Source of the DNA: a virus
Length of the DNA: 64,000 nt
Virus record (IMG/VR): IMGVR_UViG_3300035204_001665
Location: 18,870 to 82,869 of that record
Strand: one strand, 5' to 3'
Of this stretch, positions 11,637-55,289 are shown piece by piece. The position numbers were made by a program, and so were the translations under genes. The notes under the pieces were generated by a model. The model was not told where the DNA came from, made no database searches, and saw only the letters and a list, made by a program, of their open reading frames with translations. Each line of letters starts with the position of its first letter. The first letter of the stretch is position 1.

Positions 11637-14600
11637 TTACCCCCTATTTTGTGTGGATTGATGGAGTATTCCTCCCTGTCTTTTCTGCTGTACGATAGTC
11701 TCTACTACGGTTTGTTTGATAAGTGTTCCAAGCGATCTGGCCTTTTCGAGAGATATCCCTTCTCCTCCAGTATTTACGTCGGTCGTTATCCCTCCGTTTT
11801 CGTTTAGATTTACGTTAATTGTAATATTGTTTGTTGTATCCCCATCAGCGACAGAGGGCTCAGACATTATTCCTTTGGCATTTTTCTCTGATCCCTTGCT
11901 TGATCGTAGACCATTTCCGCCCACGTACCCGCCCGAAGCAAACGCAGGGACATTCCCCTTGTTCAGTTGGGTAAAGAAATCTGAACCGTATTTTTGTACT
12001 GCACTTCTATTGACTACGTATTCTCCGCCCATTAACATGGCTGGGATAGCGTCGCCGATTAGTCCGCCCGTGGCCTTCCCGATACCTCTACTGGTTACCG
12101 CTCCTCCCGAAGCTCCACCTAGCCAGCTAAAGAAGTTGCCGCCGACGGTGCCTTGCGCTCCGGGCATGCCTAGCCCAGCGCCACCTGTTAATGCACTTAT
12201 GCCTAATGATGCCGCAGCAGCGATCATGGAGTACTTCATTCTCTTCTTCTTCGCGGCCTTCCATTTTGCTACTGCTTCTGCATGGGCAATTAGATCACTT
12301 GCTCTATCTTCGTAGTAGCTATAAAGTTTGGACACCTTGTCTTGTCTAATTTTGTTCCTTGGATTGTCACTGTCGGCAAGTGCTTGTCTAGTTAATCTAG
12401 GATCTATTGAAAAGTAACTATGATCAAGCGACGGGAACTTATCACTATCGTAAACAAATGCATTTCTTAAATTATAATCTACCCATCTTCCCTCTCTCCC
12501 ATGTTTTATATTCGAGACCAGTCCTTCTTGCGGATCGGCGAATGCGTTTGCCTCCCATTGCGCTTTTAACTTAGCTATGTCTTTGGTAGACATTCCTAGT
12601 CCACCGTGCGTCGTGGGCTCAGACAAGTGCGTCCAGTAATCTACCTTATAGTTCTTTTTTCCAAAGAAGCTGGGGTCTGGATCTGTGTGTTCATATTGAG
12701 GTAGACCTCTTTGTCTTCTTAAGGCGGTCATTTCTGACACTAAAGTTTTGCTGCCGTCAGGATATAGAATATATGCCGGCTGGCCTAATTTTGGATCTCC
12801 GACAATCTTTCCGGGGCCTCTTCCTGCACGGACGCCTGCACCGACTCTGCCTCCGGTGGCATATTTATTTACCGCCCCAAATCCCTCATTATTAATGAGA
12901 TCAATTAGAGAAACTCCATACTTTTTAACCGCCGCTTTTCTTAGTACATATTCCCCTTGTTGTAAAAATGCAGGCACATCGTCTTTGGTTCCTGACCCTC
13001 CTACAACTGGTCCACCTCTAGCAAATTTTTGAACACCATTATTAGTAATCAAGCCACCCGTTGCTGCTGGAGCAGCCTGCGCGAACGAGCCTATTACTCT
13101 ATTTACTGTCATCTGGAGTACTTGATCTAGAGCATAATCGGCCAACTTTAGGAACATGTCACTGAAAGCTTCCTCCAAAGTCTTAGTTCCCTTAATCGCT
13201 TCGCCAAACGCAGAAGCTATTCCGCTTCTGAACTCCATGCCAAATGTAAATAATGCTTCATCAGCATCGATCATCATTTCTTTGGTTCCGTAGTGCCAAG
13301 CGGCGAAGAGATCCTTGAAGGTCTGCTTCATTTGATAACTTCCGTCCTTAATAGACTTTCTAGTTTCTTCCCTTCGAGCTTCTATTGTTTCCCGACTTAG
13401 TGTTCCCGGGTCGAGCATGTCTAAATTAATTTGTTCTCTTAGGTCGGTTAAATCATTTTTTAGTTTCTTTATTTTTATATTTTTCCATGCTTCCTCTAGA
13501 CTCTTTCCATCTTTCGCCATTTGTTCCAGCAATTTTGCTTGGTGTTCATATTTCTTGGCCTCCTCAGAGGCCGCTAGGGCTCCTTCCACATCTTCGCCTA
13601 ACATCAAGGTATCGTGTTTAGCCCAAGCTCGCTTTGCTGCCACTTTCATATTTTCGATTACTGGAGCTATGGGAGTAGTAATACCCGGTTGGATTTTGCC
13701 CGGCATTAGATCTGGATGATCCTTAAGAAGAGACGCGGTACCCACTTGCCACGCTGCCCTTCCTGCTTGCCAAGTTTTTTCCTCTTGTGCAGAAATAGCT
13801 GAAGGCATTGCCCCAGAAGCCTTCATCAAATAAAGAGTTCTTCTTTCTAGTTGGAACCGATTATCGTGAGCCTCCTTGGACATTTTGAGACTATTCTCGT
13901 GAAAGTTCTTCTGAGCCTTTGTCATCGCTAAGTAAAACTCTCTTATCTGCTTAGGCGTTAGCTTCTGACCGCCAAGGTCTAGTTGGGTTAGCTCGTCAAA
14001 GAGCCGCTTTTGTACTTCCGGGCTTTGCCCGGGACCAAATACATCCTCCGAGGTACCAAGGCTACCCTGAAGATATCCATGAAGCACTCGGCCACCTTGC
14101 TTATTTAAGCCAAATTTCTTTTCTAAATCTGTTATCCATTTTGGGCGTTCCCCCTTTCCTTGTATGCCCAAAGACGCAAGCAGCCCTCCCAGCTTTTTCT
14201 TAAGGGGGCTTTTACTATCTGACCAGTAAGGTACTCCCGGAGCCTCGCCGCCCAAGGGCCTAGCATCTATACCGGCTCTACGGGCCGCCTCAGGGGTTTG
14301 GTTCCACCCTATGTTCAAGCTCCTCCAAGAATTAGCCGGGGCCTGTCCGGCTTGGATAAGCCTAGATTGACTAGGAAACAGCCCAAGCGGCGCATACCCG
14401 GGCCTTTTGCCCCCTGAAGAAGTATCAAGTCCCAAGCGTTTTTTGATCGTATCAATGAGGTTCTGGTCCTTGCCGCCTCCTCCAGTTCCAAACATAAACT
14501 GCTCTAAACTTTTTTCTATTCTCTTCTCAAGGCCGCTGGCCAATTGTTGCAAGTTGTCAGATGTCGCTGGGCCACTTCTCAATTGCAGGATTGAACGATC

Positions 14601-17600
14601 TAGTTCTTTTATCTCCGCGTCCAATTGTTGAAGCTGTAGGTTAAAGCCTTCTTTTAATAATTTTTGTAGCTCTTTAAGTGTGTCTCTCTGTGCGTCTGTA
14701 GCGTCCTCCATCACTGACCTAATATCTTCCATCACTAACTGGGTACCTAATTGTTCATTCGGGGCAAGTATTTTTCTTATTTGTTCATCTAATTTCTTCT
14801 TCTTGGCGGGCATCCTTTGAATTGCATATAAAGTGGGGTCGAGACCTTCCAGCCTTATCTGGTCTGTTAGACCACCAATCAAATCATCAAGATTGTCTAC
14901 TTGGTCCTCGACATATTGTTTTAATATTTTATCTACTTCCTTTTGGGCAATCTGGATATCGAGATATCTCTCACGAATTACAGAGTCTGACTGCATTGCT
15001 GCTTGCCTTAATGCGTTAGCTTGCGTTTTGTAATGTTCGTATTTGGCCCTTAGTTGTGCTATTTTTTTCGGGTCCTCTTCCTGCGCCTCCATAATCTCTA
15101 GCTCTAGTCGCATTTCCTCTGCCATGACCTTGGTTTGATCAGATTCCTTCAATCGCGCATTTCTCCAAGCGGTCGCAGTTGGTCGGGTAGCCTGCGCTGC
15201 ACTCGCTGCACTAGGATCTCTTGTCGCCGCTCCCCAGAAATCGAAACCGGTCGATTGACCTCCTTGGTATGCCATACTCGCATAATTTTTCCTCCAAGCG
15301 TCCATGGATAAACCTATTCGCCCACTACGCATTTCTCTTTGTCCGGCTCTATTAGCGGTTGGTGTAAGTGACGCCTCGAAAATTCTTCTATTTAATTGAC
15401 TTAAGTCTTCATTAGCTTGATCTGCATTCTTTAATTGCATTTCAAATAATATTCTTCGACGTTCTGTCTTGGCTGCTTCGTCTTTAATTTCGTTGTCGTA
15501 AATTTTAGCAAATTGGCTTTCGTATTTTCTTACTCTTAGTTCATTTAAATTAGCGAGTGAGGTTATTTTTTCCTGAACCGTTTTCATTGGGGATAATTGA
15601 GTATCCAAGTTATCTAACATGGCATTTTCTAAAGCATCATTGAGATCAATCATTTGATCCTTTATATACGTTTTCATCTCTTCGCCCAGTGGGCCCTGTT
15701 GGGCTTTAGCTAAGTGTCTCCATCCGCCAACGCCGAACATCTGACCTCCCACGCCAGAGAGTCTTCCCGCCTGATCCCAATTTGATCCGAGTTCAGGTTG
15801 CCCAAATAATCTGCCTATGCCGGGTTGATGCACGGAAGTTCTAAGCATGGAGCCTCTATCTCCTATTGGAATACCGGCAGCAGTAAATTTTTCTTCTGTA
15901 GCTTTTCTTCCTCGTCTCCAATCCCCCACAGCCGAAGCGTGCTCTGTTGCCATTTGTTTTTTCCATTCTACATGTTTTTCCGCTGGAGTCAACCCGGCCC
16001 ATTTTGCCTTGGCATTGTCGCCGTATTTTTTAACGTAGTGTGCTGGTGGAACTGTCTGAGTGTCAGCTGGCATCGCCCCCCTTCTCGGCGCGGGAGCGTC
16101 ATAGCCTTTAACCTCTTCAGCTGTGATGCCATATCTAGCCGCCTGTAAACTCACGTTGGGAGTATAACCCCCGAATTGGAGCCTTTCCATACTCGCACTA
16201 TGACGCGTGGCTCGTGCAGCAGAAAAAGCTGCCCGATTGTCCCTAGTCGCAGGAAGTCTTTCGAGCTTCATCAATTTTTGTACGTTATCGTCTAGCGTGC
16301 CTTGTAGTTTTCTGAAGAAGTTCTCATGATCTTCGTCGAAAAGAACTTCTAGTCTGTCGACTAAAGTTTTTTGGAAATCTGTTAAGGCGAAGTCACCACC
16401 GAGAATCTTATCGAAATCTTGATCTCTTCCCCAGTCCGCAAATACTTCTTTAAATTTATAGCCAAGCGAAGTGTCTTTTAATTGACCCAATTCAGTCCTA
16501 GATTCAAGACCTGTAAACTTTGCGCGTTTAAAGGCCGTGTCTGCCGCATAGCCTTTTTCCATAAATTTTTGTATATCTATATCCCTCAAGATTTGAAGGG
16601 CCTTTATTTGATCTTGAAGGCTTCCGGCTTGGACGTTCGCTATGGCTTTTTCAATTCTTAGCCTGTACTCTTGGAGCTTTACGACATCTCCATGCTCCTC
16701 CCCAATCTTCTTGATTGCTTCCAAGACTCCCATCAGCTGCGCCTGTTCCAATGCGTCCTGTCGGTCGAAATTATCAATGTCATTATCAAACTTGTCTTGC
16801 AGCTGCTCGAGTCTCGATCTTATAGAACCCTCTATTTTGCTTTCCTTAATGCCTGTCTCCAATGCCATTTGTACTTCATTGAGGACGGATTGAGGGCTAC
16901 TTTCTGCCACCGCAGTCAATCCCAGACGTGTCCCAGTTCCGAAGCCCGCCCATTCCTTAGCAGTTCCGCCTCTGAAGAGCCACTCTGCCTCTTTTTGTAT
17001 TCTTTTAAAGTCTGGTAATATAGCATCCATTTGCGACATGCGCTCTTGCTGCTGGTTCCACCAAAACTCTTTACCCCAATCTGTAAATAAGGACGGTCCG
17101 GCTGTCATAGGCCTTAAGTTAGGGTCACGGCCTTCATTTAGGCGTTCCCTCTCCTCGTTGTAGTATTCTTGATCTCTCAATGCTGCCAGCCTTTTTAGTC
17201 CGGTAGCTAAATCTCTTAACTCAGCATCAGTCATATCTATAGACTTCTTGCCTCCCTTACCGCCTTTGGTCCATCCGCCAACAAGTGAAGCTTTATATCT
17301 CTCGGCATCCTCTTGATCTTTGAGATTCTCAGATGCCTGCAGCCTGAAATAAGCGTCGATCGCAAGAGCACCTTGCCAGAATCTATTCTTTTTCATTCCA
17401 GACTCTCCGTACGAGCCGGCCTTCGGAACCTCTTTCCTTGCTGTCTCTTTATCTACTGCGAGCTCTATCCTCGCATCTCTCACTTTTAGTGCTTGGTTGC
17501 GCACAGCTCTTTCTCTAAAATCCCTTGCTAAATCCGCCGGCGGCGGCGGATTTAAAGGCCCGGCCCCGGAAACTTCAAAAACTTGACCACCTTGGTCGAT

Positions 17601-20600
17601 GGCACGTTCCTTAGCCTTAAGATTCAGAACCGCCTCTTGCCTGTCAATCCTTTCGTCGAGGAGTCTAATTCGTCTCCTTTCCCATTCTAGTGCATCTTTA
17701 AAATACTGTTCCTGCTTGTCGTTCGGCGCTAGATCCCATTCCTCACTCATGCCAAGTGCTTCTTTACTTAGCTTAATAGACAGTTTCTTATGACGCTCCG
17801 CTTCTGAATACGCCTTTTTGCGCTGTATTTCTAACTCGCGCTTTTCATGTTTATCGATATTGTCACGGCGCGAAAACTCCGTTATATTATCCCCTTTCAA
17901 TGTCCATATATCGCCTCGCTGTCTATGAGCCTCCGCGAGCCTTTCCTTTTCAGCGATCTGAGCCCTGCGGGAGATATTAGGAAGGTCTTCGCCGTATTTC
18001 ATGTATTTTTGATATGCATGTTTATAGCTTGCCAGCCAATCTTCATCGCCCCTATCTCCGGTCCTATCATTGGGCTCTACTCCCGTGTACCCCAGCTTTT
18101 TCGCCATAAACCATGCGCCTTGTTGATTTATGACCCTATCGCCACCAGTGGTTCCGCCGAGGAGGCTGGTAAACATCTTCACCCACTGAGTTCCGGTGCC
18201 CACGTTCCTGTCAATTATTTGAGAAAGGGCTCCATACAGAGTAGCTTCCTCTCCCTTTTTATATTTCACGAAGAAGTCACCCTCGTCTGATACCCCATTC
18301 TCGAAAAAGTCGTCCCCAATGGCTGGCAGAGCGCCGCCGCCGAGTGGCACGATTCTACCCGCATCGAGCTCCTTCTGCGTATATGTTCCTCGTTTCCTAT
18401 ACATGCCATCCTGACTCCAAACCGTATTGCCGGCTGCATCTTTTTCCCATGGTTGCCAATTGCCCGCTTTTGCTACAGCTAAATTTGCCTGAAAGTCTGG
18501 TCCCATGTTCGCGAGCACGCCTGAATCAAATCTTACATCTGATGGTATTTGTCCACGTGCTATTTGCTTAAGTGCTTCTACTCGTCCAGCATGACTGAGA
18601 TTCGGATCATCAAATAGAGCTTGCCCGACTGACATGAAAGCTTTAGCTTGCGCCGTCCTTGCCTCCCTTTGCGCTTTCTCAGCCGTACCCCCGGAACCAT
18701 CAGCGAGCAAGTTTCCCTGATCCCACTTCATCCAACCCATCTGCATAGCTAGATATTTTGACCGCAGATCTTTAAATTGTACATCCATCTTGCCTTGTTG
18801 GCTCAATCTTTCCTGTTCTGCGTCACTCGTGCTATTCATTAGCTGCATCGCTCTTTTTTCGTTCTTGTTAATCTCTTGGAGATTCTTCATGTACGTTTGA
18901 ATTCCGAAACCAACGTTAAAAGCAGTGATGAGACGTGACAGGCTATCATCTATTGACTGGAATCCCGCTTCATTTGTCGCCGTTATCACTGTCCCGATAT
19001 TGTCTATTCCGGTTTCTTTTATTGCTCGAGTAAAGGCACTTTGGTTTGCCTCCTCCAAGAATCTCCACTGATCCCCAAACATCTCCCTCAACAACTCCAT
19101 ATCATTTCTAATTTTGATCACATCTTCAGGCAAGGCTTTCAATTTCAACGCAGCGCTGACTTGCTGCATCGCGTCGTCTATTGCTCCTTCGCTCATTGAT
19201 TTAAAGACGCCCTGCCTCCACAATTCATCGTCTGGTTTAGCGCCCCCCCAAGACCTCAGGTTTTTATCCTTAATTTTGAGCTGTTTTTGTACGTCTAAAG
19301 TCAGGCCCAGTACGGCACTAGCAATCATCTTGTCGTAAGTCGGGTCGGAAAGCTGTCCCGCGTCCATACTGAAATTTTTTGTTAGATCCTGTAAAGACTT
19401 AAAGTCCGCCCTTCCTCTATTCATAAGTCGCTGCGGTATAGTCGGGCTAAATTCCGCCTCCGCCCTTTCCTCTCGCAGACTTCTAGTCTTTTTCCATCTT
19501 TCTCCTCCAGCAAAGCTAGCTATCCCTCCTCCAAATTTTAACTGTTGTTGAAGTTCGATTAGTCTTTCTTGATTCTTTGTTTGTATTTTTTGAATCATTA
19601 TCTCTTCTTGTTGTTGCTGTAGCAACTTCATTAAGCTTTGTTCGGCCGATTCTTTCAGAGAGCCTATCTCATTCACTACGGAATCTATCTCGGTAGAACT
19701 CAATCCTACGGTATTAAGCTCCCGACGAAGATTTTTCACTATGTTCGGCATCATTTGTTCCGGGGCAGCGGCTGATTGGTGCAGGGCTTTTCCCAGTATT
19801 TCAGAGAACGCCTGTTGAGCTCTCTCTCTTTTCTTTAATTCAGTTTTTTCAGTGATCGATAAGGGCTGGCCTTCTTTATATTGTTTTAGTTGTAGTCTTT
19901 GTACTGTCTTAGCATTTTCGTCCAGCTTTTTATCAAGAACACCAATTATGCTGCGCTGAGTTTTTGCAACCAATAACTGCCCTGACGCTAAATATTTCTC
20001 CATAGTGGCCATCTCTGCTATCTGTTGCTTCCGCTGCATTTGATCCCATTTTCCCTCGAAAGGATCAATCAATTTCGAGTGACCCCTCGCGTTTGTTAGG
20101 ACGGCCTTCCTAGAATAAGATTCTCTCATTCTTCTTCTTTCATTATGCCCTTCTACTCTTTTTCTTGCAATGTCAGTAATTGATTTAAGATTAAAATTAA
20201 AATGATCAAGCTGTTCTCCAGCTCTCTTCATTGCTACGTTAAATACGCCAGATATCTCTTTATTTTTTCTTATTACTTCCGCCAGCTTATCTAACTCGTC
20301 TGCGGCCTCGCTTTCAGCCTTTAGGCGATGCAGAATCGCCCCGTTGAGAGCGGTCATATCATGTATTCCTTTAACTAATACCTGCTCTATCGCCTCCATC
20401 AGTTCGGGGTTTAGGCCAACCTCCGCGAACCACTGCATATTATTTTTTACTCTCTCGTTATGCTTTATCCCGGGTCGGGTACCGGCCATCAATTTTCTTC
20501 TGAGCTCTTTGCCCGCAAAACCCTGAACGTCTTCCTTCTCTAACCTCCTCATGACAGAATCCACCACCGCATCTCTCGCAGCAGCTGCATTAAATCTCTG

Positions 20601-23600
20601 TTTTCTTGCCTGTTCAGCGCCACCCGCTGCAGCGGCTCCTCCACCGAATCCACCTTCTACACCTGTTTTGTCACCGCCCTGATGGCCCCAGAACCACCAC
20701 CCAATTTCGTCACGCTCCTTCCTGCCTTTTTCTATAGTTCCCGCAGCTTCAATGTCTTTAGCAACATCCTTCAGGGATTTTTCGATTCTTTCGAAGGTCT
20801 TTTTGAGTTCGTCGCCGCTATGAGCAGCCGCCCTAACATCCGCAGCAAATTCTCTCGGTACATTTCTTACGGACTCGAACATCGCGTCCGTTCTCTTTTT
20901 TAATTGTTCGGGGCTGATATCTGGATCAGTTAAAGCCTGCTGGTATTCAGCTTGATTCTTAAGATACTCTTGGGAAAGATTTTGAAACTCTTGCAGTTTT
21001 TCATTTGCCCCCTCTAGGGCCTCCTTCCATTTTTTGGTTTGGTCTCTAGAAGCTTCTCCCCACTTTTCAATTCCATCCAACACAGCGAATGTTGCAGCGC
21101 CAGCCATCACCCATGGATTGCCGCTCATTGCTCCCATCAAGCCAATGCTCATGCTATCTTGGACGACCTTGGACTTCTGCTCATCCATTCCGAGCCCGGC
21201 CATTGCTCCGCCGACCATAGGCATCGCCATCATTCCCATCATTGCCCCCTGTTGACCCCACTGTCCAACCATTCCTCCGCCGCGCTTCAACGAACCCATC
21301 ATACCGCCCCCCGCCGCTCCAGCGGCGGCACCGCCTACCATTTGCCCTGACGACATTGCATTTCTATTGTGCGCAGCAGCTTCTCTCGTGAGAGCTGCAG
21401 AATTTTTGTCATGTGCAGCGCGCTCTTCTTGAAGATCTATTTCTAGTTGCTTTCTTGTTGCTACTTCCTTATCGAGAGCTGCTCCTTCTTTTGTTCTTGA
21501 AACTTTATTCTTTTTTCTTTGTTGGACGCTGGCCCTTATTTCGTCCGCTTCTTTTTTTCGGTCTTTATTAGATTGGGTTAAAATTTTGTTTTCTTCCTTT
21601 TCCAGCTTTTCCTTTTCCTCATCAGTCATCGAGCTAGTCTTCCTTCCTTTAAGTCCAGCCTTTTCTCTAGCTTCCGATTTTTCTTTTCCGGTTAAATCGT
21701 CCCTTCCTCTTTCCTTATCTAACTTGTCGGCCTTGGCTAAATCTTTATCGTCTTTCTTTGTATTTTTTAAGTTTTTGGCAAACTCTTCTAGCGCTTGTTC
21801 TGCTTGCTCTGCGCCGTCGCCCAATTCTCTCTGCCGTTCCTTAAGATCCTCGCCCTCTGCCTGCATTGCTTCGAACCTAGTTCTAAGCTCTATGGCGGCT
21901 GAGCCTGTCTCTTTAAATTTATCTGCCAAGTCTTTGGCTCCCATAGCCATAAAGGCCAGAGCCATCGTATTTATGCCGGTGTCTACGCCGGTCATTCCTC
22001 CCCCCTCATCCTCCGCAAAGTTGGGAACAAACCCGCTTGAAGACAAAACCTTTTGAGCAGCCTTGGAGTTTTGCACTGCCCTACCTATACCTTCTGGATG
22101 ATCCCTTACTACATCAGCGAAACTACTTTGAGTTTTAGCGTCTCTTACATAAACTCCCACCCTAGGATTATAATCTAACGTCGGCTTTCCACCGAGCGCC
22201 TGCTCTGTCTCGATTGCTTCCATCACTCCGAAATTAGGAATGAAGCCCCCAGATTTTCCTTTGCCCTTTGTTCCCTTTTTACTACTTACTTCCGAACGTA
22301 TTCTCCTAAATTCATTGGCTATTTTTTCAGCCATACTTTTTCGAAGGGTCGGTGAATTCTGGGCCTTGTAATCTGCATGACCAACAAAGGGTACACCAAA
22401 TAAGTTTCTAACTTTTCCTGATCCTTTTGTACCCGATCTAACATCAAATCGTGCAGTTTCTACATCTTTAGCTCTAGCGAACGCTGCGTCTAATCCTGCT
22501 TCAAATACGTTGCCAACCGCAGATTTGAGAGCGCCAGTATTAAAATATTTCCCCGGCTCAGGAGTTAAAGCAGGCTTAATTGGGTCTGGACTGAATTCCC
22601 TTGCATACGCTGTCGCTGTTTTTGTCAAAGATTTTTCTACCTTTTTATGTAAAGAGTCCCTCCTGTTCTTGGGTATGTCTGGGTCATAAATATTAAATTT
22701 TATTCTCGTACTTTTCTTTCCTCTACCTGTTCCCGGAACTGACGCTATTGCTGAGGTCCCACGCCCAGCCCCGAGTCCCATCTCTGGCACTAACATCGCA
22801 GCCGACCGAGTAGCATCCCAAACTCCCCCAACTCTTCTCGGCTCAGCGACAGCGAAATTAGGAATAAATCCTCCAGAGAATAGTTTTTCTTTTCTTGCCG
22901 CTAAAGCGTTTTTGGTATCAAACCCCATTATCCTATTCATTTCGCCAAGGCTTCCTATGGCGGGAGTGCCAGAGGGAGACATCGTCCAAGTAGAAAGTTC
23001 ATTACCTCTATTTTTCGTTTCTATACCTATACGATTTTCTAGAGTACGTAAATGGGCAGCAGCCATTTGATCACCGCCCTTTATTTTTGATTGCAGCCTT
23101 CTCTTTAGGTGGCGCAAGCTAGAACTATTTGTTTCATATAAAGTTTTTTTAAAAATTTGAGCGACATATCTGGCTCTAAAAGATGGCTTAGATTCAACCG
23201 CAAAGTTTCTTCCTCCCACTCTTTCTCCCGAATCATAAGGTAACTTGAGTTTCTGTGGGTCCATGTCTTTTGCCGCTTGACTCTTGCCTCTAAATCGACC
23301 CATTCCAAATCCTCCGTATCTTGCGGCAAGTGCGGCTTCCTGTTGTCCTCCTTTTTTCGCCGCTCTCCTTCCTGTTCCTTTCGTAAATCCGGCCCTTTCT
23401 TTTTCGGTTATTGGTTTTTGTTGACCCAGCGTATTGATGGTTACATATTCACTTCCGGGAATAACATATTTAATGACTTTGCCTAGTTCTGGGCCGACCT
23501 CTTTAGCTAGCACGTCTCCCCTAATTTTTAATCTGCCACTAGACCCCTGTCTTCCCTGCTTGTCTACGCCAAGGCGTAGGGACGTAAGAAATTGCAAAAG

Positions 23601-25556
23601 GTTTGGAACAAATCCAAATGCGCTAGGTCCAGACGAATCCGGACTAAACCCCCATTGAGATTCGAATGCTTTCCCGTAAGATTTTCCCGCCTTGCCGGGG
23701 GGGATAATCGCTGGCTGTTTTATTCCGGGAAATCTTTTTACTTTTTCTGCGCCGTTATAAGTCACCCTTCCTTCTCCCGGAATACTCATTGTTTTAATCC
23801 GTCCGGGTTTATAACCTGCCTGCAGAGCACCAATGTATTCGCTCATTCCGGCGTTAAAGCTAGGAACATGACCTGAACTTTTTCTGATGAGTGTAGTCGT
23901 TCCTGTAGATTTATCAATTCTCGCGCCGACTTGCGAGCCCACCGCCGGAGTCATTTGTCTTGAAAGGGACAAGAGCTTTTCTCTTGCGATAATTTCTGAC
24001 TTCAAGGCTTCTAAAATCAAGTTTTCAGCTTTGAGTACGGACATCTCTCCGGTTTCTATCTTTTTAATTAAAGCTGGGTTAGACGAAAGGATACCGTGAA
24101 TTTGTTGCTGAACCGCTGCCTGTTGCTGGGCAGCTTTATTCAGCCCCATCATATCTTTCGTAGACTTAGCAAGGAAAGTTACAAAGTTATAAAATAATTT
24201 ACCCGCTATCGCTGTTAGCGCTATCAATCCCGGTCCAGATAAAAAGTTCCCGATAGACTGCATTACGCCCTTTGCCATCCTCCCCCCGAAATCGTTAGCT
24301 TCTTTATCGTTGAAACCGAAGAACCCTGCGATGTCTCCAAAAAAACTAGTTTTCTCAGTCAATTTATTAAAACCGTCCAATAGAGCCCTAAACGCTGGCT
24401 CAAATGACAGTGCCCCTATCTCTGCGCCCATCTTGGTAAGATTTTGCACAGACTCATTTGTTAGTGCCGCTAAGGTTTTATTTAGTTCTTGATTTCTACG
24501 TATGGCTTCATCAGTAGTATTAAGCGAAGTCTTAAGTGCTTGTTCATATATAGACGTTCCCTTTTTTAAATCTCCTAAAATCGCCTTTAAAATATTCATC
24601 TGATAAACACCACCGACCAGCTCTGCGGTTTGAGCCTTGGCTGCAGAACCCAAGCCATCATACGCCTTCGCGAAATCTTTCATGATTGCCATGGCTGGGC
24701 GTAAGTCTCCGTTCATCTTCTTTACTTGAACGCCCAAAGCTTCTAACTGTTGCTGGACACCTGTCCTCTGGACTCTTGTAAAAATTGTTTTTAGGGAGTT
24801 ACCAATAATATTACCGCCTCTGGCAGTTGTTTGTTGGGCTGAAGTAACCACCGCTATCAGTTCATCAAAACTTACATTTGCTCCTTCAGCGGTTGATGCG
24901 ACTCTTTTTATAGCCTCAGCTAAATCATTAGTACTAACCGCGAAAGCTGCATCCACATTTGCCATTTTATTAATAATTTCCGTAGAGGTAATTGCCGTTC
25001 TATTGAAACTGTTAATAGCGGCCGTTAGAGAATTCACGGCGGCGGTGGCATCCATACCCGATAGTCTCATTAATATCAGAGCGTCTCTTGTTCGAGTAAT
25101 GGTTTTTTCCATTCCCAGACCCTGCCTAGCAAATTCTTGAGCGGCCTCACCGACCTGTTGAAAAGATTGCCCTGTATTTTTTGCTACGTCGAAGAGGTTA
25201 TTACTGAATTTTTTTAAATTTGAACTTGAAGCATTGAGAATTACATTGATGCCAGCTAGAGTTTTTTCAACCTCTATTGTAGCTTTAGCCATTTCCTTAA
25301 AAGCACTAGTAACTCCATATAAAATTCCTGCCGAAGCGGTAAAGGCAATAACGCGGGCGTTAGAAGCATCTAAACTTTTTTGGAATTCGGCGATTGAACC
25401 AGTAATTTTACCAAGTGGTTGGGTGAATTTTTTAGAGTCTATGCCCTGTAGTTTTATTTGGGTACGCTCAGCCTTTCTGGCAAAATTAGCCAGATCCTTC
25501 TCCGCTCGACTAGTATCTAACCTAGCCTCTCCTTCAATTCTAAAGTCTACAGCCAT
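11637..25556 (-). CDS. Giant tail tape measure protein (4639 aa)
   Basis: TP901-like N-terminal TMP core (EFARQG, VDAAFAVST.DLAEAI.RV.S.A, T.RGG.IIGNSLKTIFTRV), long coiled coils, Gly/Ala/Met hydrophobic segments, and C-terminal FARGG..GSGTKDDVPA.L..GEYV motifs; lies downstream of tail tube and chaperone genes. Confidence 0.92.
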   Translation of the reverse strand: MAVDFRIEGEARLDTSRAEKDLANFARKAERTQIKLQGIDSKKFTQPLGKITGSIAEFQKSLDASNARVIAFTASAGILYGVTSAFKEMAKATIEVEKTLAGINVILNASSSNLKKFSNNLFDVAKNTGQSFQQVGEAAQEFARQGLGMEKTITRTRDALILMRLSGMDATAAVNSLTAAINSFNRTAITSTEIINKMANVDAAFAVSTNDLAEAIKRVASTAEGANVSFDELIAVVTSAQQTTARGGNIIGNSLKTIFTRVQRTGVQQQLEALGVQVKKMNGDLRPAMAIMKDFAKAYDGLGSAAKAQTAELVGGVYQMNILKAILGDLKKGTSIYEQALKTSLNTTDEAIRRNQELNKTLAALTNESVQNLTKMGAEIGALSFEPAFRALLDGFNKLTEKTSFFGDIAGFFGFNDKEANDFGGRMAKGVMQSIGNFLSGPGLIALTAIAGKLFYNFVTFLAKSTKDMMGLNKAAQQQAAVQQQIHGILSSNPALIKKIETGEMSVLKAENLILEALKSEIIAREKLLSLSRQMTPAVGSQVGARIDKSTGTTTLIRKSSGHVPSFNAGMSEYIGALQAGYKPGRIKTMSIPGEGRVTYNGAEKVKRFPGIKQPAIIPPGKAGKSYGKAFESQWGFSPDSSGPSAFGFVPNLLQFLTSLRLGVDKQGRQGSSGRLKIRGDVLAKEVGPELGKVIKYVIPGSEYVTINTLGQQKPITEKERAGFTKGTGRRAAKKGGQQEAALAARYGGFGMGRFRGKSQAAKDMDPQKLKLPYDSGERVGGRNFAVESKPSFRARYVAQIFKKTLYETNSSSLRHLKRRLQSKIKGGDQMAAAHLRTLENRIGIETKNRGNELSTWTMSPSGTPAIGSLGEMNRIMGFDTKNALAARKEKLFSGGFIPNFAVAEPRRVGGVWDATRSAAMLVPEMGLGAGRGTSAIASVPGTGRGKKSTRIKFNIYDPDIPKNRRDSLHKKVEKSLTKTATAYAREFSPDPIKPALTPEPGKYFNTGALKSAVGNVFEAGLDAAFARAKDVETARFDVRSGTKGSGKVRNLFGVPFVGHADYKAQNSPTLRKSMAEKIANEFRRIRSEVSSKKGTKGKGKSGGFIPNFGVMEAIETEQALGGKPTLDYNPRVGVYVRDAKTQSSFADVVRDHPEGIGRAVQNSKAAQKVLSSSGFVPNFAEDEGGGMTGVDTGINTMALAFMAMGAKDLADKFKETGSAAIELRTRFEAMQAEGEDLKERQRELGDGAEQAEQALEEFAKNLKNTKKDDKDLAKADKLDKERGRDDLTGKEKSEAREKAGLKGRKTSSMTDEEKEKLEKEENKILTQSNKDRKKEADEIRASVQQRKKNKVSRTKEGAALDKEVATRKQLEIDLQEERAAHDKNSAALTREAAAHNRNAMSSGQMVGGAAAGAAGGGMMGSLKRGGGMVGQWGQQGAMMGMMAMPMVGGAMAGLGMDEQKSKVVQDSMSIGLMGAMSGNPWVMAGAATFAVLDGIEKWGEASRDQTKKWKEALEGANEKLQEFQNLSQEYLKNQAEYQQALTDPDISPEQLKKRTDAMFESVRNVPREFAADVRAAAHSGDELKKTFERIEKSLKDVAKDIEAAGTIEKGRKERDEIGWWFWGHQGGDKTGVEGGFGGGAAAAGGAEQARKQRFNAAAARDAVVDSVMRRLEKEDVQGFAGKELRRKLMAGTRPGIKHNERVKNNMQWFAEVGLNPELMEAIEQVLVKGIHDMTALNGAILHRLKAESEAADELDKLAEVIRKNKEISGVFNVAMKRAGEQLDHFNFNLKSITDIARKRVEGHNERRRMRESYSRKAVLTNARGHSKLIDPFEGKWDQMQRKQQIAEMATMEKYLASGQLLVAKTQRSIIGVLDKKLDENAKTVQRLQLKQYKEGQPLSITEKTELKKRERAQQAFSEILGKALHQSAAAPEQMMPNIVKNLRRELNTVGLSSTEIDSVVNEIGSLKESAEQSLMKLLQQQQEEIMIQKIQTKNQERLIELQQQLKFGGGIASFAGGERWKKTRSLREERAEAEFSPTIPQRLMNRGRADFKSLQDLTKNFSMDAGQLSDPTYDKMIASAVLGLTLDVQKQLKIKDKNLRSWGGAKPDDELWRQGVFKSMSEGAIDDAMQQVSAALKLKALPEDVIKIRNDMELLREMFGDQWRFLEEANQSAFTRAIKETGIDNIGTVITATNEAGFQSIDDSLSRLITAFNVGFGIQTYMKNLQEINKNEKRAMQLMNSTSDAEQERLSQQGKMDVQFKDLRSKYLAMQMGWMKWDQGNLLADGSGGTAEKAQREARTAQAKAFMSVGQALFDDPNLSHAGRVEALKQIARGQIPSDVRFDSGVLANMGPDFQANLAVAKAGNWQPWEKDAAGNTVWSQDGMYRKRGTYTQKELDAGRIVPLGGGALPAIGDDFFENGVSDEGDFFVKYKKGEEATLYGALSQIIDRNVGTGTQWVKMFTSLLGGTTGGDRVINQQGAWFMAKKLGYTGVEPNDRTGDRGDEDWLASYKHAYQKYMKYGEDLPNISRRAQIAEKERLAEAHRQRGDIWTLKGDNITEFSRRDNIDKHEKRELEIQRKKAYSEAERHKKLSIKLSKEALGMSEEWDLAPNDKQEQYFKDALEWERRRIRLLDERIDRQEAVLNLKAKERAIDQGGQVFEVSGAGPLNPPPPADLARDFRERAVRNQALKVRDARIELAVDKETARKEVPKAGSYGESGMKKNRFWQGALAIDAYFRLQASENLKDQEDAERYKASLVGGWTKGGKGGKKSIDMTDAELRDLATGLKRLAALRDQEYYNEERERLNEGRDPNLRPMTAGPSLFTDWGKEFWWNQQQERMSQMDAILPDFKRIQKEAEWLFRGGTAKEWAGFGTGTRLGLTAVAESSPQSVLNEVQMALETGIKESKIEGSIRSRLEQLQDKFDNDIDNFDRQDALEQAQLMGVLEAIKKIGEEHGDVVKLQEYRLRIEKAIANVQAGSLQDQIKALQILRDIDIQKFMEKGYAADTAFKRAKFTGLESRTELGQLKDTSLGYKFKEVFADWGRDQDFDKILGGDFALTDFQKTLVDRLEVLFDEDHENFFRKLQGTLDDNVQKLMKLERLPATRDNRAAFSAARATRHSASMERLQFGGYTPNVSLQAARYGITAEEVKGYDAPAPRRGAMPADTQTVPPAHYVKKYGDNAKAKWAGLTPAEKHVEWKKQMATEHASAVGDWRRGRKATEEKFTAAGIPIGDRGSMLRTSVHQPGIGRLFGQPELGSNWDQAGRLSGVGGQMFGVGGWRHLAKAQQGPLGEEMKTYIKDQMIDLNDALENAMLDNLDTQLSPMKTVQEKITSLANLNELRVRKYESQFAKIYDNEIKDEAAKTERRRILFEMQLKNADQANEDLSQLNRRIFEASLTPTANRAGQREMRSGRIGLSMDAWRKNYASMAYQGGQSTGFDFWGAATRDPSAASAAQATRPTATAWRNARLKESDQTKVMAEEMRLELEIMEAQEEDPKKIAQLRAKYEHYKTQANALRQAAMQSDSVIRERYLDIQIAQKEVDKILKQYVEDQVDNLDDLIGGLTDQIRLEGLDPTLYAIQRMPAKKKKLDEQIRKILAPNEQLGTQLVMEDIRSVMEDATDAQRDTLKELQKLLKEGFNLQLQQLDAEIKELDRSILQLRSGPATSDNLQQLASGLEKRIEKSLEQFMFGTGGGGKDQNLIDTIKKRLGLDTSSGGKRPGYAPLGLFPSQSRLIQAGQAPANSWRSLNIGWNQTPEAARRAGIDARPLGGEAPGVPYWSDSKSPLKKKLGGLLASLGIQGKGERPKWITDLEKKFGLNKQGGRVLHGYLQGSLGTSEDVFGPGQSPEVQKRLFDELTQLDLGGQKLTPKQIREFYLAMTKAQKNFHENSLKMSKEAHDNRFQLERRTLYLMKASGAMPSAISAQEEKTWQAGRAAWQVGTASLLKDHPDLMPGKIQPGITTPIAPVIENMKVAAKRAWAKHDTLMLGEDVEGALAASEEAKKYEHQAKLLEQMAKDGKSLEEAWKNIKIKKLKNDLTDLREQINLDMLDPGTLSRETIEARREETRKSIKDGSYQMKQTFKDLFAAWHYGTKEMMIDADEALFTFGMEFRSGIASAFGEAIKGTKTLEEAFSDMFLKLADYALDQVLQMTVNRVIGSFAQAAPAATGGLITNNGVQKFARGGPVVGGSGTKDDVPAFLQQGEYVLRKAAVKKYGVSLIDLINNEGFGAVNKYATGGRVGAGVRAGRGPGKIVGDPKLGQPAYILYPDGSKTLVSEMTALRRQRGLPQYEHTDPDPSFFGKKNYKVDYWTHLSEPTTHGGLGMSTKDIAKLKAQWEANAFADPQEGLVSNIKHGREGRWVDYNLRNAFVYDSDKFPSLDHSYFSIDPRLTRQALADSDNPRNKIRQDKVSKLYSYYEDRASDLIAHAEAVAKWKAAKKKRMKYSMIAAAASLGISALTGGAGLGMPGAQGTVGGNFFSWLGGASGGAVTSRGIGKATGGLIGDAIPAMLMGGEYVVNRSAVQKYGSDFFTQLNKGNVPAFASGGYVGGNGLRSSKGSEKNAKGIMSEPSVADGDTTNNITINVNLNENGGITTDVNTGGEGISLEKARSLGTLIKQTVVETIVQQKRQGGILHQSTQNRG

Positions 25557-52761: not shown

Positions 52762-53121
52762 TTATTGAGGTTTAGTTACTTCTGGGTGAACTCTAACCTT
52801 ACCATCCAATACCTTGTTTACTTCTTCGTCGTTTACTGTATAAGTTTCTATATCATAGACGCCCATGACAACCGGTAAAGCTTGCGTTTGTGTTGGTGTG
52901 AGCTTAACGCTAATTACCCCACTGGCTGGAGTTAGTGAGCCCTCGGTATTAACTTGTGGACCAAGATCAACTAAATATGCCCCTGTTCCATAGTTATATT
53001 TAAGATGACCACGGACACTGTAGCCGTTTAAATCGACAGCTGTCCCATCTGAATTCTTAATGGATAGTTGGGCGGAAAATGACGACCCCTGAATAACGTC
53101 TAAATTGTAGTAGATAAGCAT
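52762..53121 (-). CDS. BppU-like fibre anchoring protein
   Basis: QGSSF...DGTAVDLNGY...G.I...LTPTQT..L...GVYDIE...G...V.PEVT pattern. Confidence 0.65.
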   Translation of the reverse strand: MLIYYNLDVIQGSSFSAQLSIKNSDGTAVDLNGYSVRGHLKYNYGTGAYLVDLGPQVNTEGSLTPASGVISVKLTPTQTQALPVVMGVYDIETYTVNDEEVNKVLDGKVRVHPEVTKPQ

Positions 53122-53165: not shown

Positions 53166-53543
53166 TTATCTTCCCTCTTCAAGAATTTTTCTTACGTCAG
53201 CATTCAAATCTGGATCTTTAGTTGGATCAGAAGCTGGTTTGTTAAACGTAGATGCGTAACGATTAAACTCGGTAAGCAGTCTTTCCTTTAACATTTTTGT
53301 ATTATCTATGGGGATCAGTCCCATTTTTTGGGCGTGCGCCATGAGGTCAGTTTTGCCATAGGCGTCCAGTCTTGTTTCGTACTCTTTTGCGTCGAGTGTC
53401 CCGTACCTAGCTAGCCCATCATCACCCCAAATTTGAGCTAATGTAGTCGGCTCGGTTTGTCTCTTTTCCACCATACCATGAGTCTGTGAAAGAGATTCCA
53501 TTTTCGTGCTCTTTTTCTTACTTGTTTTCTTTTTCGCTGTCAT
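53166..53543 (-). CDS. Hypothetical protein (125 aa, basic N-terminus) directly downstream of the ribozyme
   Basis: Clean ORF with no recognisable Shine-Dalgarno and an A-rich leader. Confidence 0.7.
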   Translation of the reverse strand: MTAKKKTSKKKSTKMESLSQTHGMVEKRQTEPTTLAQIWGDDGLARYGTLDAKEYETRLDAYGKTDLMAHAQKMGLIPIDNTKMLKERLLTEFNRYASTFNKPASDPTKDPDLNADVRKILEEGR

Positions 53544-53560
53544 AATATTTTTTTTGGATT

Positions 53561-53636
53561 AGCCGACACGTAGTTTCGTAAACTTCATTGACATTCGCAT
53601 TAATGCCAATTAGCACTCTGCACGAACCACGTAGTC
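53561..53636 (-). ncRNA. Predicted 76-nt structured exon or circular RNA product of the adjacent ribozyme
   Basis: Lies between the predicted omega-G (53637) and the U of the IGS-complementary GGCU|AAU (53561). Its ends pair (GACUACGUGGUUCGU with ACGAAACUACGUGUC), and it has an inner hairpin UUGGCAUU/AAUGUCAA. Confidence 0.5.
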
Positions 53637-53866
53637 CAATTGTGTTATCGCCGCTTTTTTAATTACGACTTCTGCATGTCGCCATGCAGTTCGGACTATA
53701 TCTTCACTTTTTACAGTGTTGGGCGCTCGTGGAGGGGTTATTGCTGGGACTCACCCTCTAGTCTCTACACCTTCCGGAAGCACTAAGCCCACTTCCGACT
53801 TGGCTCGGTATTGTCTCAGAGAGAGTTCTACCGAATTCACCCAATAAGGCCAATTTTCAAATAACT
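53637..53866 (-). ncRNA. Group I intron catalytic core (ORF-less, intergenic)
   Basis: P3 UUGGGUG (53844-38) with CGCCCAA (53725-19); P4 UUCGGU with ACCGAG; R element GUAGAGACUA; P8 CACU/AGUG; S element AAGAUAUAGUCC (53704-693); P9 CUGCAUG-GCGA-CAUGCAG; 3' end ...GAUAACACAAUUG. Confidence 0.9.
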
Positions 53867-53871
53867 ATATT

Positions 53872-53900
53872 ATTATACATTAACTTAACCCTTAATGCAA
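53872..53900 (-). promoter_or_regulatory. Sigma70-like promoter driving the ribozyme
   Basis: TTGCAT (53900-895), 17-nt spacer, TATAAT (53877-872); predicted start about 53866-53865. Confidence 0.7.
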
Positions 53901-55289
53901 TTAAAAATCAATAACTTGTCCATCGCACTCTTTCTTTAAGAACATTATTCCTCCCAAGCCTGATTTGTCTGAAGAATAATACGTCATATACATGTCTTTT
54001 TGTTGATTTAATGTTATTCTCACTGTTTCGCCGGGCTTATCTCCATTAGCTGCCGTAGGATCAGAGAGATTTAGTTTACCTCCCATATATTGATGGTTTT
54101 GGCACTGGTAATATAAAGTGTCTGGAGCATCATAAGGGACATTAAATATCAATCTCCCCTCTCCGTTACCTGTGTCTCTTACTAGCACTCCCGATGGGAA
54201 TATGTTTGTATTTGCTCCGCCCGAGTCAGTACTGATGTATAATGGGTGCCCGTCGTTTGAACTGCCGGTTTGACTAAAGCTGTAGGTATGACCCCTAGTT
54301 AAAGAAAGATCTAAGGACTGGTTTGATTCACCACTGACGACATAACCATTAGAACTCCCTGCGGTGGGATATGGGTGAGTATTGTCTTTTGCCGCAACGG
54401 TAATATACCATGGAAGATGGACCTGCGGAGATACGAATCTTTGCACATTAGTTGTGTATTCGTCAAACCCTTCCCAAGTTCCATCGCTACCGGTACTAAA
54501 TGTAAATTTATATCCGCTCCAATTAGCGTAAGAACCCCCACTCGGCCAAATTTGGTATGAGCCGCCGTCTCCACTTTGCAAATGAAAATTATACGAAGAG
54601 CCAGAGCTATTTAAAGTGAGGGGGTATCTATAAAATCCGTCAATATAAAATGCAGTATCTCCATTATCGTCTTGAACGTATACGTTTATATCTTCCTCAT
54701 GACAAGAATAGGCGGTAGGCTCTACGTAATATGTTGATGACGCGCTATATTCCGAGTACTGACTCGTCGTAGAATCAAGAGGCGGGACGGTTCCCTTGGG
54801 AAACTTTACCCTTACCAATTCATTAATTTCGAATTCTATATACGGATAAGCATGACCTTGATCATAGGATCCATCAGCTTGCAATATTGGTTTTTTTTGT
54901 AGACTAGTATGCTTTTCCCAGTAGTTACGGTAATGTGCTTGGAACGCTTCATCTTGTTTCACATCAAGTATATACTTCAGATAAGAAGGCATATCGTTTT
55001 CCTTATATCCATATGGGTAACTAGTCTTAATATTCTCCCATATCTCTTCAGCTTTTGTGTCCGTAAGCTCATCTGCTTTTTTGTATTTCCAAAACCTGTT
55101 TCCCTTTTCTTGGTATCCGTGATTTCTAGACTCTTTTGTGAACCCTACCTTTTCTACCCGAAGAAGCTTAATAGGCTTTAAAAAATATCTTGGGGTTGTA
55201 TCTCCATCTCTGTTTTCAGAATTAACATTAAAACATAATTGCACTTTGATTCTAAAAGCATAATTAACCCTATTGATAGATAAACTCAT
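53901..55289 (-). CDS. Structural protein with a cupredoxin-like domain
   Basis: LSLTRGHTYSF...GHPLYIST...FNVPYDAPDTLYYQCQNHQYMGG supplies H...C-x2-H-x2-M. Confidence 0.65.
   Translation of the reverse strand: MSLSINRVNYAFRIKVQLCFNVNSENRDGDTTPRYFLKPIKLLRVEKVGFTKESRNHGYQEKGNRFWKYKKADELTDTKAEEIWENIKTSYPYGYKENDMPSYLKYILDVKQDEAFQAHYRNYWEKHTSLQKKPILQADGSYDQGHAYPYIEFEINELVRVKFPKGTVPPLDSTTSQYSEYSASSTYYVEPTAYSCHEEDINVYVQDDNGDTAFYIDGFYRYPLTLNSSGSSYNFHLQSGDGGSYQIWPSGGSYANWSGYKFTFSTGSDGTWEGFDEYTTNVQRFVSPQVHLPWYITVAAKDNTHPYPTAGSSNGYVVSGESNQSLDLSLTRGHTYSFSQTGSSNDGHPLYISTDSGGANTNIFPSGVLVRDTGNGEGRLIFNVPYDAPDTLYYQCQNHQYMGGKLNLSDPTAANGDKPGETVRITLNQQKDMYMTYYSSDKSGLGGIMFLKKECDGQVIDF

Follow-up and report, generated by a model that had tools for sequence, protein, structure and literature searches.

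A group I ribozyme on the minus strand of IMG/VR virus record IMGVR_UViG_3300035204_001665 is analysed here within a stretch of 64,000 nucleotides (nt) (the window; positions 18,870 to 82,869 of the record). Situated between a complete open reading frame (ORF) of 462 amino acids (aa) and the gene for a 125-aa protein, it is best explained as a promoter-driven, guide-first ribozyme, circularly permuted in loop L1, that would form the 5′ leader of the 125-aa gene. Its internal guide sequence precedes the core, and the strand with which the guide would form the substrate helix P1 follows the core, close to the start codon. Evolution has apparently turned the catalyst of textbook introns into a gene leader that cleaves its transcript beside the start codon and may make an RNA ring. 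The covarying guide/target pairs yield exact predictions on cutting. Coordinates refer to the window unless another contig is named, and every part of the element lies on the minus strand.

Split and reversed P1

The guide AUUGGCC (53848-53854), predicted to be the 3′ strand of a split P1, pairs with GGCUAAU (53558-53564) over 7 base pairs (bp), including G53851.U53561, and the predicted cut falls between U53561 and A53560 (GGCU/AAU). The two strands lie about 290 nt apart and in reversed order. An earlier note on this DNA had proposed guide, target and wobble, and had asked for a collection of homologs in which covariation of the two strands could be checked.

Relatives were sought by two pattern scans of viral and metagenome contigs, one for the guide plus P3 and the other for J8/7-P7-P9; the second leaves guide and target free. 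The scans returned 171 regions, 150 of them unique. Twenty-seven of the 150 carry the P9.1/GAUAACA/UUGG signature together with a downstream site, and 16 of the other 123 unique regions were inspected for the layout. Alignment A2 contains 23 distinct members; L018 and L025 (same contigs as L010 and L009) were omitted, as were L119 and L126, which are cut off before the guide, and L175 is cut off after P7.

Across A2, guide columns 19-25 and site columns 359-365 are paired in 89.4% of cells, versus 3-54% when the partner is slid by 1-3 columns. Pairs 53848:53564 and 53849:53563 are C-G in all 23 members, and 53850:53562 is G-C in 21 and A-U in 2. Pair 53851:53561, at the predicted cleavage site, is G.U in 23 of 23. 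On its other side, 53852:53560 is U-A in 19, C-G in 2 and U.G in 2, and 53853:53559 is U-A in 21 and U.G in 2; the seventh pair, 53854:53558, is A-U in 3, U-A in 2, U.G in 1 and unpaired in 17. Three P1 pairs change on both sides while the G.U stays. A constant wobble that never turns into a Watson-Crick pair amid covarying neighbours is characteristic of group I 5′ splice sites.

The covariation score of P1 is 0.149, compared with 0.102 in shuffles, and none of 500 shuffles reaches it. RNAalifold, given the alignment alone, predicts the guide/target helix, and a third member with the GACC:GGUU combination (L196) was found among loci of the 125-aa homologs. The pairing that the earlier note had read from one sequence is borne out, present in 23 of 23 relatives and covarying among them. 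At the level of sequence comparison, the guide-first layout with a split P1 is confirmed as real, conserved and under selection.

Downstream, 23 of 23 members have a 6-nt sequence that can pair with the guide, +139 to +145 from the P7 motif; upstream (within 52-185 nt) only 2 have one, at -37 in the window and at -45 in L016, both in promoter spacers. The claim that no upstream P1 forms needs amending to this extent: a complement, GGUUAA at 53890-53885, does exist in the promoter spacer of the window, and what stands is that it is not conserved. An ordinary cis-splicing intron with an upstream 5′ exon could take its P1 from this 6-nt complement or from a hairpin at 53908-53888, where the Rfam alignment draws it. 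Such an intron is nevertheless extremely improbable, given a complement found in those two members only, a region that is a promoter with a variable spacer, and a complete 462-aa ORF upstream. The upstream gene also varies: a full 462-aa homolog precedes the ribozyme in 13 loci, and none does in 8 loci that have at least 1 kilobase of upstream sequence. Conventional relatives with the same P7-P9 moreover have a P2 hairpin between guide and P3, whereas the guide stands 3 nt before P3 in 23 of 23 guide-first members. Both upstream candidates for P1 were dropped, the hairpin (candidate A), drawn over the stop codon of the 462-aa ORF, because relatives lack it, and GGUUAA paired with UUGGCC (candidate B) because relatives do not conserve it. 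Since the upstream gene varies and the 125-aa homolog is constant, the element travels with the gene behind it and not with the one in front.

Having its 5′ side free, the guide could in principle also bind RNAs in trans, and a ribozyme that cuts or trans-splices other GGCU-bearing RNAs had been offered as an alternative. This alternative is disfavoured and has a minimal probability: three positions covary between guide and cis site, the cis site keeps a fixed distance in 23 of 23 members, and a specificity of 4-6 nt would hit very many RNAs.

Catalytic core and genomic setting

The core is recognized by RF00028, the Rfam group I family, with a match at 53912-53672 of 71.3 bits (cut-off 50, E 5.4e-18) that covers model positions 1-253 of 253. 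This covariance-model score over the full model passes the curated cut-off, and the full P3-P9 core claimed in the earlier note is confirmed by the very check proposed there. The match is unique within the 82,869-base virus record containing the window (record-wide search; completeness estimate 54). A whole-window Rfam scan with default fast filters and gathering thresholds gave 0 matches, which is a filter miss; focused and record-wide scans recover the core. The matched RNA comprises J1/3 and the catalytic core P3-P9 (53672-53847), with a P7.1-type insert and no P2, and probably belongs to subgroup IA2. The P9.1 hairpin that follows, GUCGU...GCGGC (53650-53669; alignment columns 243-248 with 261-264), covaries, being GUUAG...CUAAU in L013.

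RNAalifold assigns 72 pairs to the 23-sequence alignment, 40 of them with changes on both sides. They form P3, P4, P5, P6, P7.1, P8, P9 and P9.1 in addition to the long-range guide/target helix, and the P3-P9 helices are backed by compensatory changes. The minimum-energy fold of 53900-53540 has z = -3.16 (0 of 100 shuffles fold as well) and closes the entire ribozyme via the helix AAUUGGC.../...GGCUAAU. J8/7, P7 and J6/7 are nearly invariant among relatives, although the flanking phage proteins are only 34-50% identical. All eight viral loci found via an alignment of the 462-aa family also have an RF00028 match (58-68 bits), in each case directly after the 462-aa gene and before the 125-aa homolog. 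The best-supported identity is a group I element, that is, a catalytic RNA with predicted guanosine-dependent transesterification.

Other ribozyme identities were considered. Allosteric group I ribozymes of the cyclic di-GMP type have a riboswitch aptamer next to the ribozyme; an Rfam search of 53300-54100 at E up to 10 gave no riboswitch family. Permuted group II domains D1-D6 were not found, the only meaningful Rfam match in the window being group I, and a lariat-capping identity was rejected because no such Rfam match was found.

Judged by its sequence context, the element interrupts no gene, as had been claimed, and is not an intron in the strict sense; an interrupted gene that exon ligation would restore was not found. 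With a complete ORF upstream, a downstream gene of a separate family and no conserved upstream 5′ splice site, it should not be filed as an intron. The upstream virion-type ORF (53901-55289, minus strand; stop codon at 53903-53901) encodes a protein with 96 relatives in the databases searched (E up to 0.001), of which about 18 are full-length. Its C-terminus aligns with the ends of homologs P0002, P0003, P0004 and P0006; its last residues, ...FLKKECDGQVIDF (CDGQVIDF), match the ends of the closest homologs (e.g. ...CDGEPVDF, ...CDGKVVDF). The 125-aa gene (53166-53543, minus strand; ATG at 53543) belongs to a conserved family of its own, and 25 of 26 loci have a homolog behind the ribozyme, the remaining locus being cut off.

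Three contigs carry more distant ribozymes. The group I ribozyme of L030 (IMGVR_UViG_3300028569_002318, about 7529-7925), whose guide reads ...GGUGGCC, shares the layout: about 115 nt of spacer separate AUUG from GGCU|AAAC, which stands 8 nt ahead of the ATG of an unrelated ORF of 564 aa. The roughly 530 nt upstream contain no ORF. L030 thus suggests that the guide-first layout also heads another gene. L020 and L024, two IMG/VR contigs, have a distant ribozyme with the guide ...UAUGGCC and, about 430-500 nt after the guide, two GGCU sites that precede an ORF of 270 aa by 50-120 nt. In a collection of 50,697 phage records, blastn matched only core pieces of 35-49 nt and tblastn of the 125-aa protein gave no match, so no cultured phage carrying the element was found there.

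Predicted processing and competing readings

Transcription would start about 11 nt before the guide (~53865), and the promoter position implies a short 5′ leader (53855-53866) ahead of it; in most relatives, 7-18 nt separate the end of the -10 element from the guide. The promoter consists of a -35-like hexamer, TTGCAT (53895-53900), and, after a 17-nt spacer, the -10 hexamer TATAAT (53872-53877). Relatives have hexamers in the same position, with TTGACT, TTGCAT, TTGATT, TTGCTA or TTGAAA at -35; the hexamers are kept and the spacer is variable. A promoter match of at least 10/12 ending 7-18 nt before the guide occurs in 11 of 23 members versus 3.4% of mononucleotide shuffles, and one of at least 9/12 in 14 of 23 versus 20%. 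A consensus promoter scan of the window did not list TTGCAT/TATAAT, because the -35 matches just 3 of 6 consensus bases. The promoter proposed earlier at 53900-53872 is therefore upheld in its conserved hexamers and weakened in its -35.

The core P3-P9.1 would then fold, as covariance-model score and covariation suggest, and guide 53854-53848 would pair in cis with GGCUAAU 53564-53558 to give P1, as the covariation of the two strands indicates. In group I chemistry, guanosine or guanosine triphosphate (GTP) attacks the 5′ splice site and becomes joined to the downstream product. By this standard chemistry, free guanosine or GTP would attack after U53561 and release the messenger RNA (mRNA) as G + AAUCCAAAAAAAAUAUU-AUG..., with an A-rich leader of 17 nt (53544-53560) plus the added G. 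Taken jointly, the events from transcription start to mRNA release are likely.

The distance from cut site to AUG is 2-35 nt in 22 of 23 members and 84 nt in L041. It shrinks to 2 nt in L011 (4826-4845) and 4 nt in L010 (4817-4839), neither with a Shine-Dalgarno sequence; in both, the AUG abuts P1 before the predicted cut and would be almost 5′-terminal afterwards, so that the processed mRNA would be nearly leaderless. Because of these leaders, the first step probably matures the mRNA and, at least in L010 and L011, licenses translation. Cis-cleavage adjoining the start codon is the best-supported function of the element and can be proposed with considerable confidence. The cut after U53561 and the short-leader mRNA for 53543-53166, both predicted in the earlier note, are backed by this comparative evidence.

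The second step depends on the position of omega-G. Downstream of P9.1 lies a conserved single strand, GAUAACACAAUUG (53637-53649), that ends in the predicted omega-G53637. Columns U276, G277 (G53637) and G278 (G53636) are invariant in 23 of 23 members, and UUG/G (53639-53636) stands 58 nt after P7. Distant L030 and L020 keep AUUG before their spacers while the next base is C or A, which points to the first G of UUGG, G53637, as omega-G. The same base had been named in the earlier note, and invariance and the distant AUUG back the choice, the role itself being predicted. With this assignment, the predicted 3′ splice site precedes the 5′ splice site within one transcript, as in a permuted intron-exon arrangement. 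A 3′-end alignment with the intron of Vibrio phage S4-7 gave no usable homology for omega-G. Placing omega-G after the spacer (...GUCGG/CU), with the guide helix as P10, was rejected because the invariant G.U marks the 5′ splice site.

Between omega-G and the cut site lies a 76-nt rod-like hairpin (53561-53636), the "cargo" of the predicted circle; across relatives, the predicted spacer, or "exon", measures about 76-86 nt. Columns 278-291 and 345-358 form its helix, which covaries and directly adjoins P1 on the same strand. The first pairs are G53636-C53565 (G-C 20, G.U 3), A53635-U53566 (A-U 17, G-C 3, G.U 3) and C53634-G53567, and the last four bases of the spacer are GGCU. Spacer positions 53600-53620 (minus strand) contain GCUAAUUGGC, partial copies of target and guide, as does L170; other A2 relatives carry GUACUAAC at this position, and the copies are no family feature. 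A permuted transfer RNA (tRNA) was rejected as the identity of the spacer, since its predicted fold is rod-like and an ARAGORN search of the window yielded no tRNA.

In the second step, the 3′-OH of U53561 would attack the bond after omega-G53637 and close G53636...U53561 into a 76-nt circle. The circle would take the shape of a rod with a GGCU loop at its end, and a ribozyme of about 230 nt ending in G53637 would be freed. Ligation would need three spacer pairs to open and G53636 and A53635 then to pair with U53852 and U53853 (P10); a P10 of 2-3 bp is possible in 23 of 23 members, the third pair forming in 13 of 23. The chances of the whole two-step path, including the 76-nt circle, are evenly balanced.

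Metatranscriptome data touch on both predicted sites. Twenty-four runs from 15 studies, 22 of them recorded as RNA, contain at most 0.22 of the sampled words and therefore represent relatives, not the window phage itself. Four were mapped as Logan contigs, none of which covers 53480-53560. In run X1, a 215-letter contig is placed on 53643-53849 with 2 and 6 letters left over and, if colinear, runs from 53851 to 53637, a weak hint. Run X9 has a depth-12 contig with 4 differences whose aligned part was derived by arithmetic as 53561-53636, give or take one base, again a weak hint; the basis is distances from the contig end of 33, 38, 33 and 32 at 53593, 53599, 53604 and 53605, and bin depths of 7.21 (53555-53569) and 13.5 (53630-53644). 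These contigs are weakly compatible with processing at both sites and do not distinguish a ring from a linear spacer.

Several results weigh against the full path. The earlier note had suggested a search for the back-splice junction in metatranscriptomes, and no such joint was found in the contigs of the four mapped runs; these contigs are built from 31-letter words, at most 30 letters per branch side, and a back-splice joint could escape listing. Contigs that cross 53637/53636 into relatives' spacers (X2 record 2, X3 records 4 and 5, X9 record 8) imply the presence of unprocessed RNA or DNA. The X9 contig appears to be linear, with an end at each site, and a linear excised spacer fits this as well as a ring does, or better. 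P10 has no covariation signal, with 85.5% of cells paired versus a shuffled mean of 86.3%, and the spacer interior is conserved within subfamilies only, so that no universal "cargo" function is visible. The -35 of the window is weak, and 9 of 23 relatives score 8/12 or less for the promoter. The downstream gene, too, does not need the ribozyme: among the best 80 loci (L183-L262) of the 235 relatives of the 125-aa gene in IMG/VR, the ribozyme stands in front in 11 and is absent from 69, absence being judged by a core-motif search and an nhmmer core profile that agree. In L007, for example, the 125-aa homolog follows a capsid-type gene and has no ribozyme. On a quick tree with few columns and many open forks, the ribozyme label takes 9 changes versus 22.4 in shuffles, a result compatible with one origin or with several.

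Some of these points apply to a leader that is cleaved once, in which the mRNA would be released after U53561 with no second step and the spacer hairpin would be a peripheral domain or tether. The evidence for P1 and for start-codon coupling serves this alternative equally, and P10 without covariation, the unevenly conserved spacer interior and the missing back-splice joint speak for it. A mere tether, however, would not need the invariant UUG/G or the AUUG that distant ribozymes keep before a differing base; the X9 contig starting at about 53636 and the X1 contig ending at about 53637 also argue weakly against it, and engineered RNAs of like layout go on to circles. Single cleavage is thus a serious but rather unlikely account.

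Group I ribozymes also have a side path in which the 3′ splice site is hydrolysed and omega-G then attacks. Applied here, the bond after omega-G53637 would be hydrolysed, omega-G would attack after U53561, ribozyme and mRNA would be joined and a linear 76-nt spacer would leave. The X9 contig, derived as about 53561-53636, weakly resembles such a linear molecule with ends at the predicted sites. The structured ribozyme would stay on the mRNA, however, and the near-leaderless advantage in L010 and L011 would be lost; the X1 contig, if it ends at 53637, weakly favours a free ribozyme. Hydrolysis as the opening reaction is accordingly improbable.

The absence from 69 of the 80 loci could also indicate an inactive intron relic, kept by chance or as a structure (e.g. 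one stabilizing the 5′ leader) without catalysis. Near-invariant J8/7, P7 and J6/7 across phages with such divergent flanking proteins, compensatory changes in 40 of 72 pairs and a G.U never replaced by a Watson-Crick pair all argue against this, and a relic is highly improbable.

Known systems and neighbouring features

Permuted intron-exon (PIE) constructs are the classical engineered permuted group I design. The closest engineered counterparts carry a ribozyme at one end and its target behind, and are described as circularizing (PMC10415121, Tetrahymena-based; PMC11417360, a "cis-splicing system"), in agreement with what the earlier note had stated of ribozyme-first constructs. Their authors stress P9.0, P10 and a P1 extension, P9.0 and P10 being said to aid the second step (PMC10415121, PMC11417360). 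As in the systems described there, the predicted omega-G of the phage element precedes the 5′ splice site and P1 brings together a 5′-terminal guide and a strand from the opposite end. Unlike these laboratory designs, the phage family occurs in nature, is encoded in DNA and has a promoter of its own; a small non-coding RNA of about 76-86 nt takes the place of the "exon", and the first step would set free a functional mRNA.

Natural back-splicing has been reported for the group I intron ND5-717 of corallimorpharian mitochondria, where it is called the first reported case (Chi et al. 2019, PMC6545197). As described there, ND5-717 is a real intron in a protein gene, holds nearly the whole mitochondrial genome in P8, and is permuted with respect to a small primary transcript; the phage element, in contrast, is broken in loop L1 and heads a gene as its leader. 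Natural circularly permuted bacterial group II introns are reported to yield RNA circles, not joined exons (Roth et al. 2021, PMC8637638). They resemble the phage element as natural ribozymes of the self-splicing type in permuted order, the phage circle being predicted only. They differ from it in ribozyme class and, by branching, in chemistry, with no kinship in sequence or structure. The lariat-capping ribozyme GIR1, described in the same source as group I-derived, lies before an ORF and shapes the mRNA 5′ end by a single cleavage-type reaction (PMC8637638). GIR1 makes a 2′,5′ lariat cap by branching and has a remodelled core, whereas the phage element has a standard group I core.

Canonical phage introns share the core. 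In the nrdD intron of the T4-like phage EC128 (L180) and the DNA-polymerase intron of Vibrio phage S4-7 (L181), P3-P4 or J8/7-P7-P9 are 87-97% identical over 35-49 nt, and the core insert between P7 and P3′ is common to both kinds of element. These introns split annotated genes, and other relatives carry P1 and P2 ahead of P3; the guide-first family, in contrast, lacks P2 and a 5′ exon and has its target behind the core.

Literature searches found no natural phage or bacterial group I element of the guide-first layout. The earlier statement that no natural phage example had been described holds for phages and bacteria within these searches, and has to be qualified by the back-splicing reported from coral mitochondria (PMC6545197). 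The broadest proposal is that phages encode a natural, widespread guide-first group I class performing true back-splicing, which would make a small closed RNA and a GTP-started mRNA, some of them leaderless; its probability falls slightly short of even. If true, this class would be the first DNA-encoded group I factory of circular RNA in the bacterial and phage world, a natural route for which the literature found offers only engineered designs and a single intron from coral mitochondria. Where the mRNA is leaderless, whether a virion-module gene is translated would depend on the action of the ribozyme and on guanosine nucleotides. The 5′ ends of mRNAs would arise by a new route, in which guanosine is added and the leader is short or almost missing. 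Intergenic matches to the Rfam group I model in phages would have to be annotated differently, and a compact scaffold (about 215 nt, no P2) would be ready for circular-RNA engineering.

The genes around the element have features of their own. Residues 310-409 of the 462-aa protein match PHROG 677, "baseplate wedge tail fiber protein connector" (E 1.5e-16), and its C-terminal motif Y-Y-x-C-x-x-H-x-x-M-G-G is kept in homologs; the motif presumably resembles a type-1 copper (cupredoxin-like) site. In the 125-aa protein, the N-terminus is basic and lysine-rich and the motifs Q-[IV]-W-G-D and I-L-x-E-G-[RK] are conserved. Pfam and PHROG searches matched no family to it, and a protein atlas search returned only viral hypothetical proteins. 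Its gene is usually followed by one for a PHROG 1084 protein, here the 119-aa ORF at 52762-53121. Before the ribozyme-less homolog in L007 (2885-2963) there is a weak Rfam anti-hemB match (28.9 bits, cut-off 49.5), probably due to chance. Elsewhere in the window, the structural block contains a single ORF of 4639 aa (11637-25556, minus strand), first read as a very long tape measure protein.

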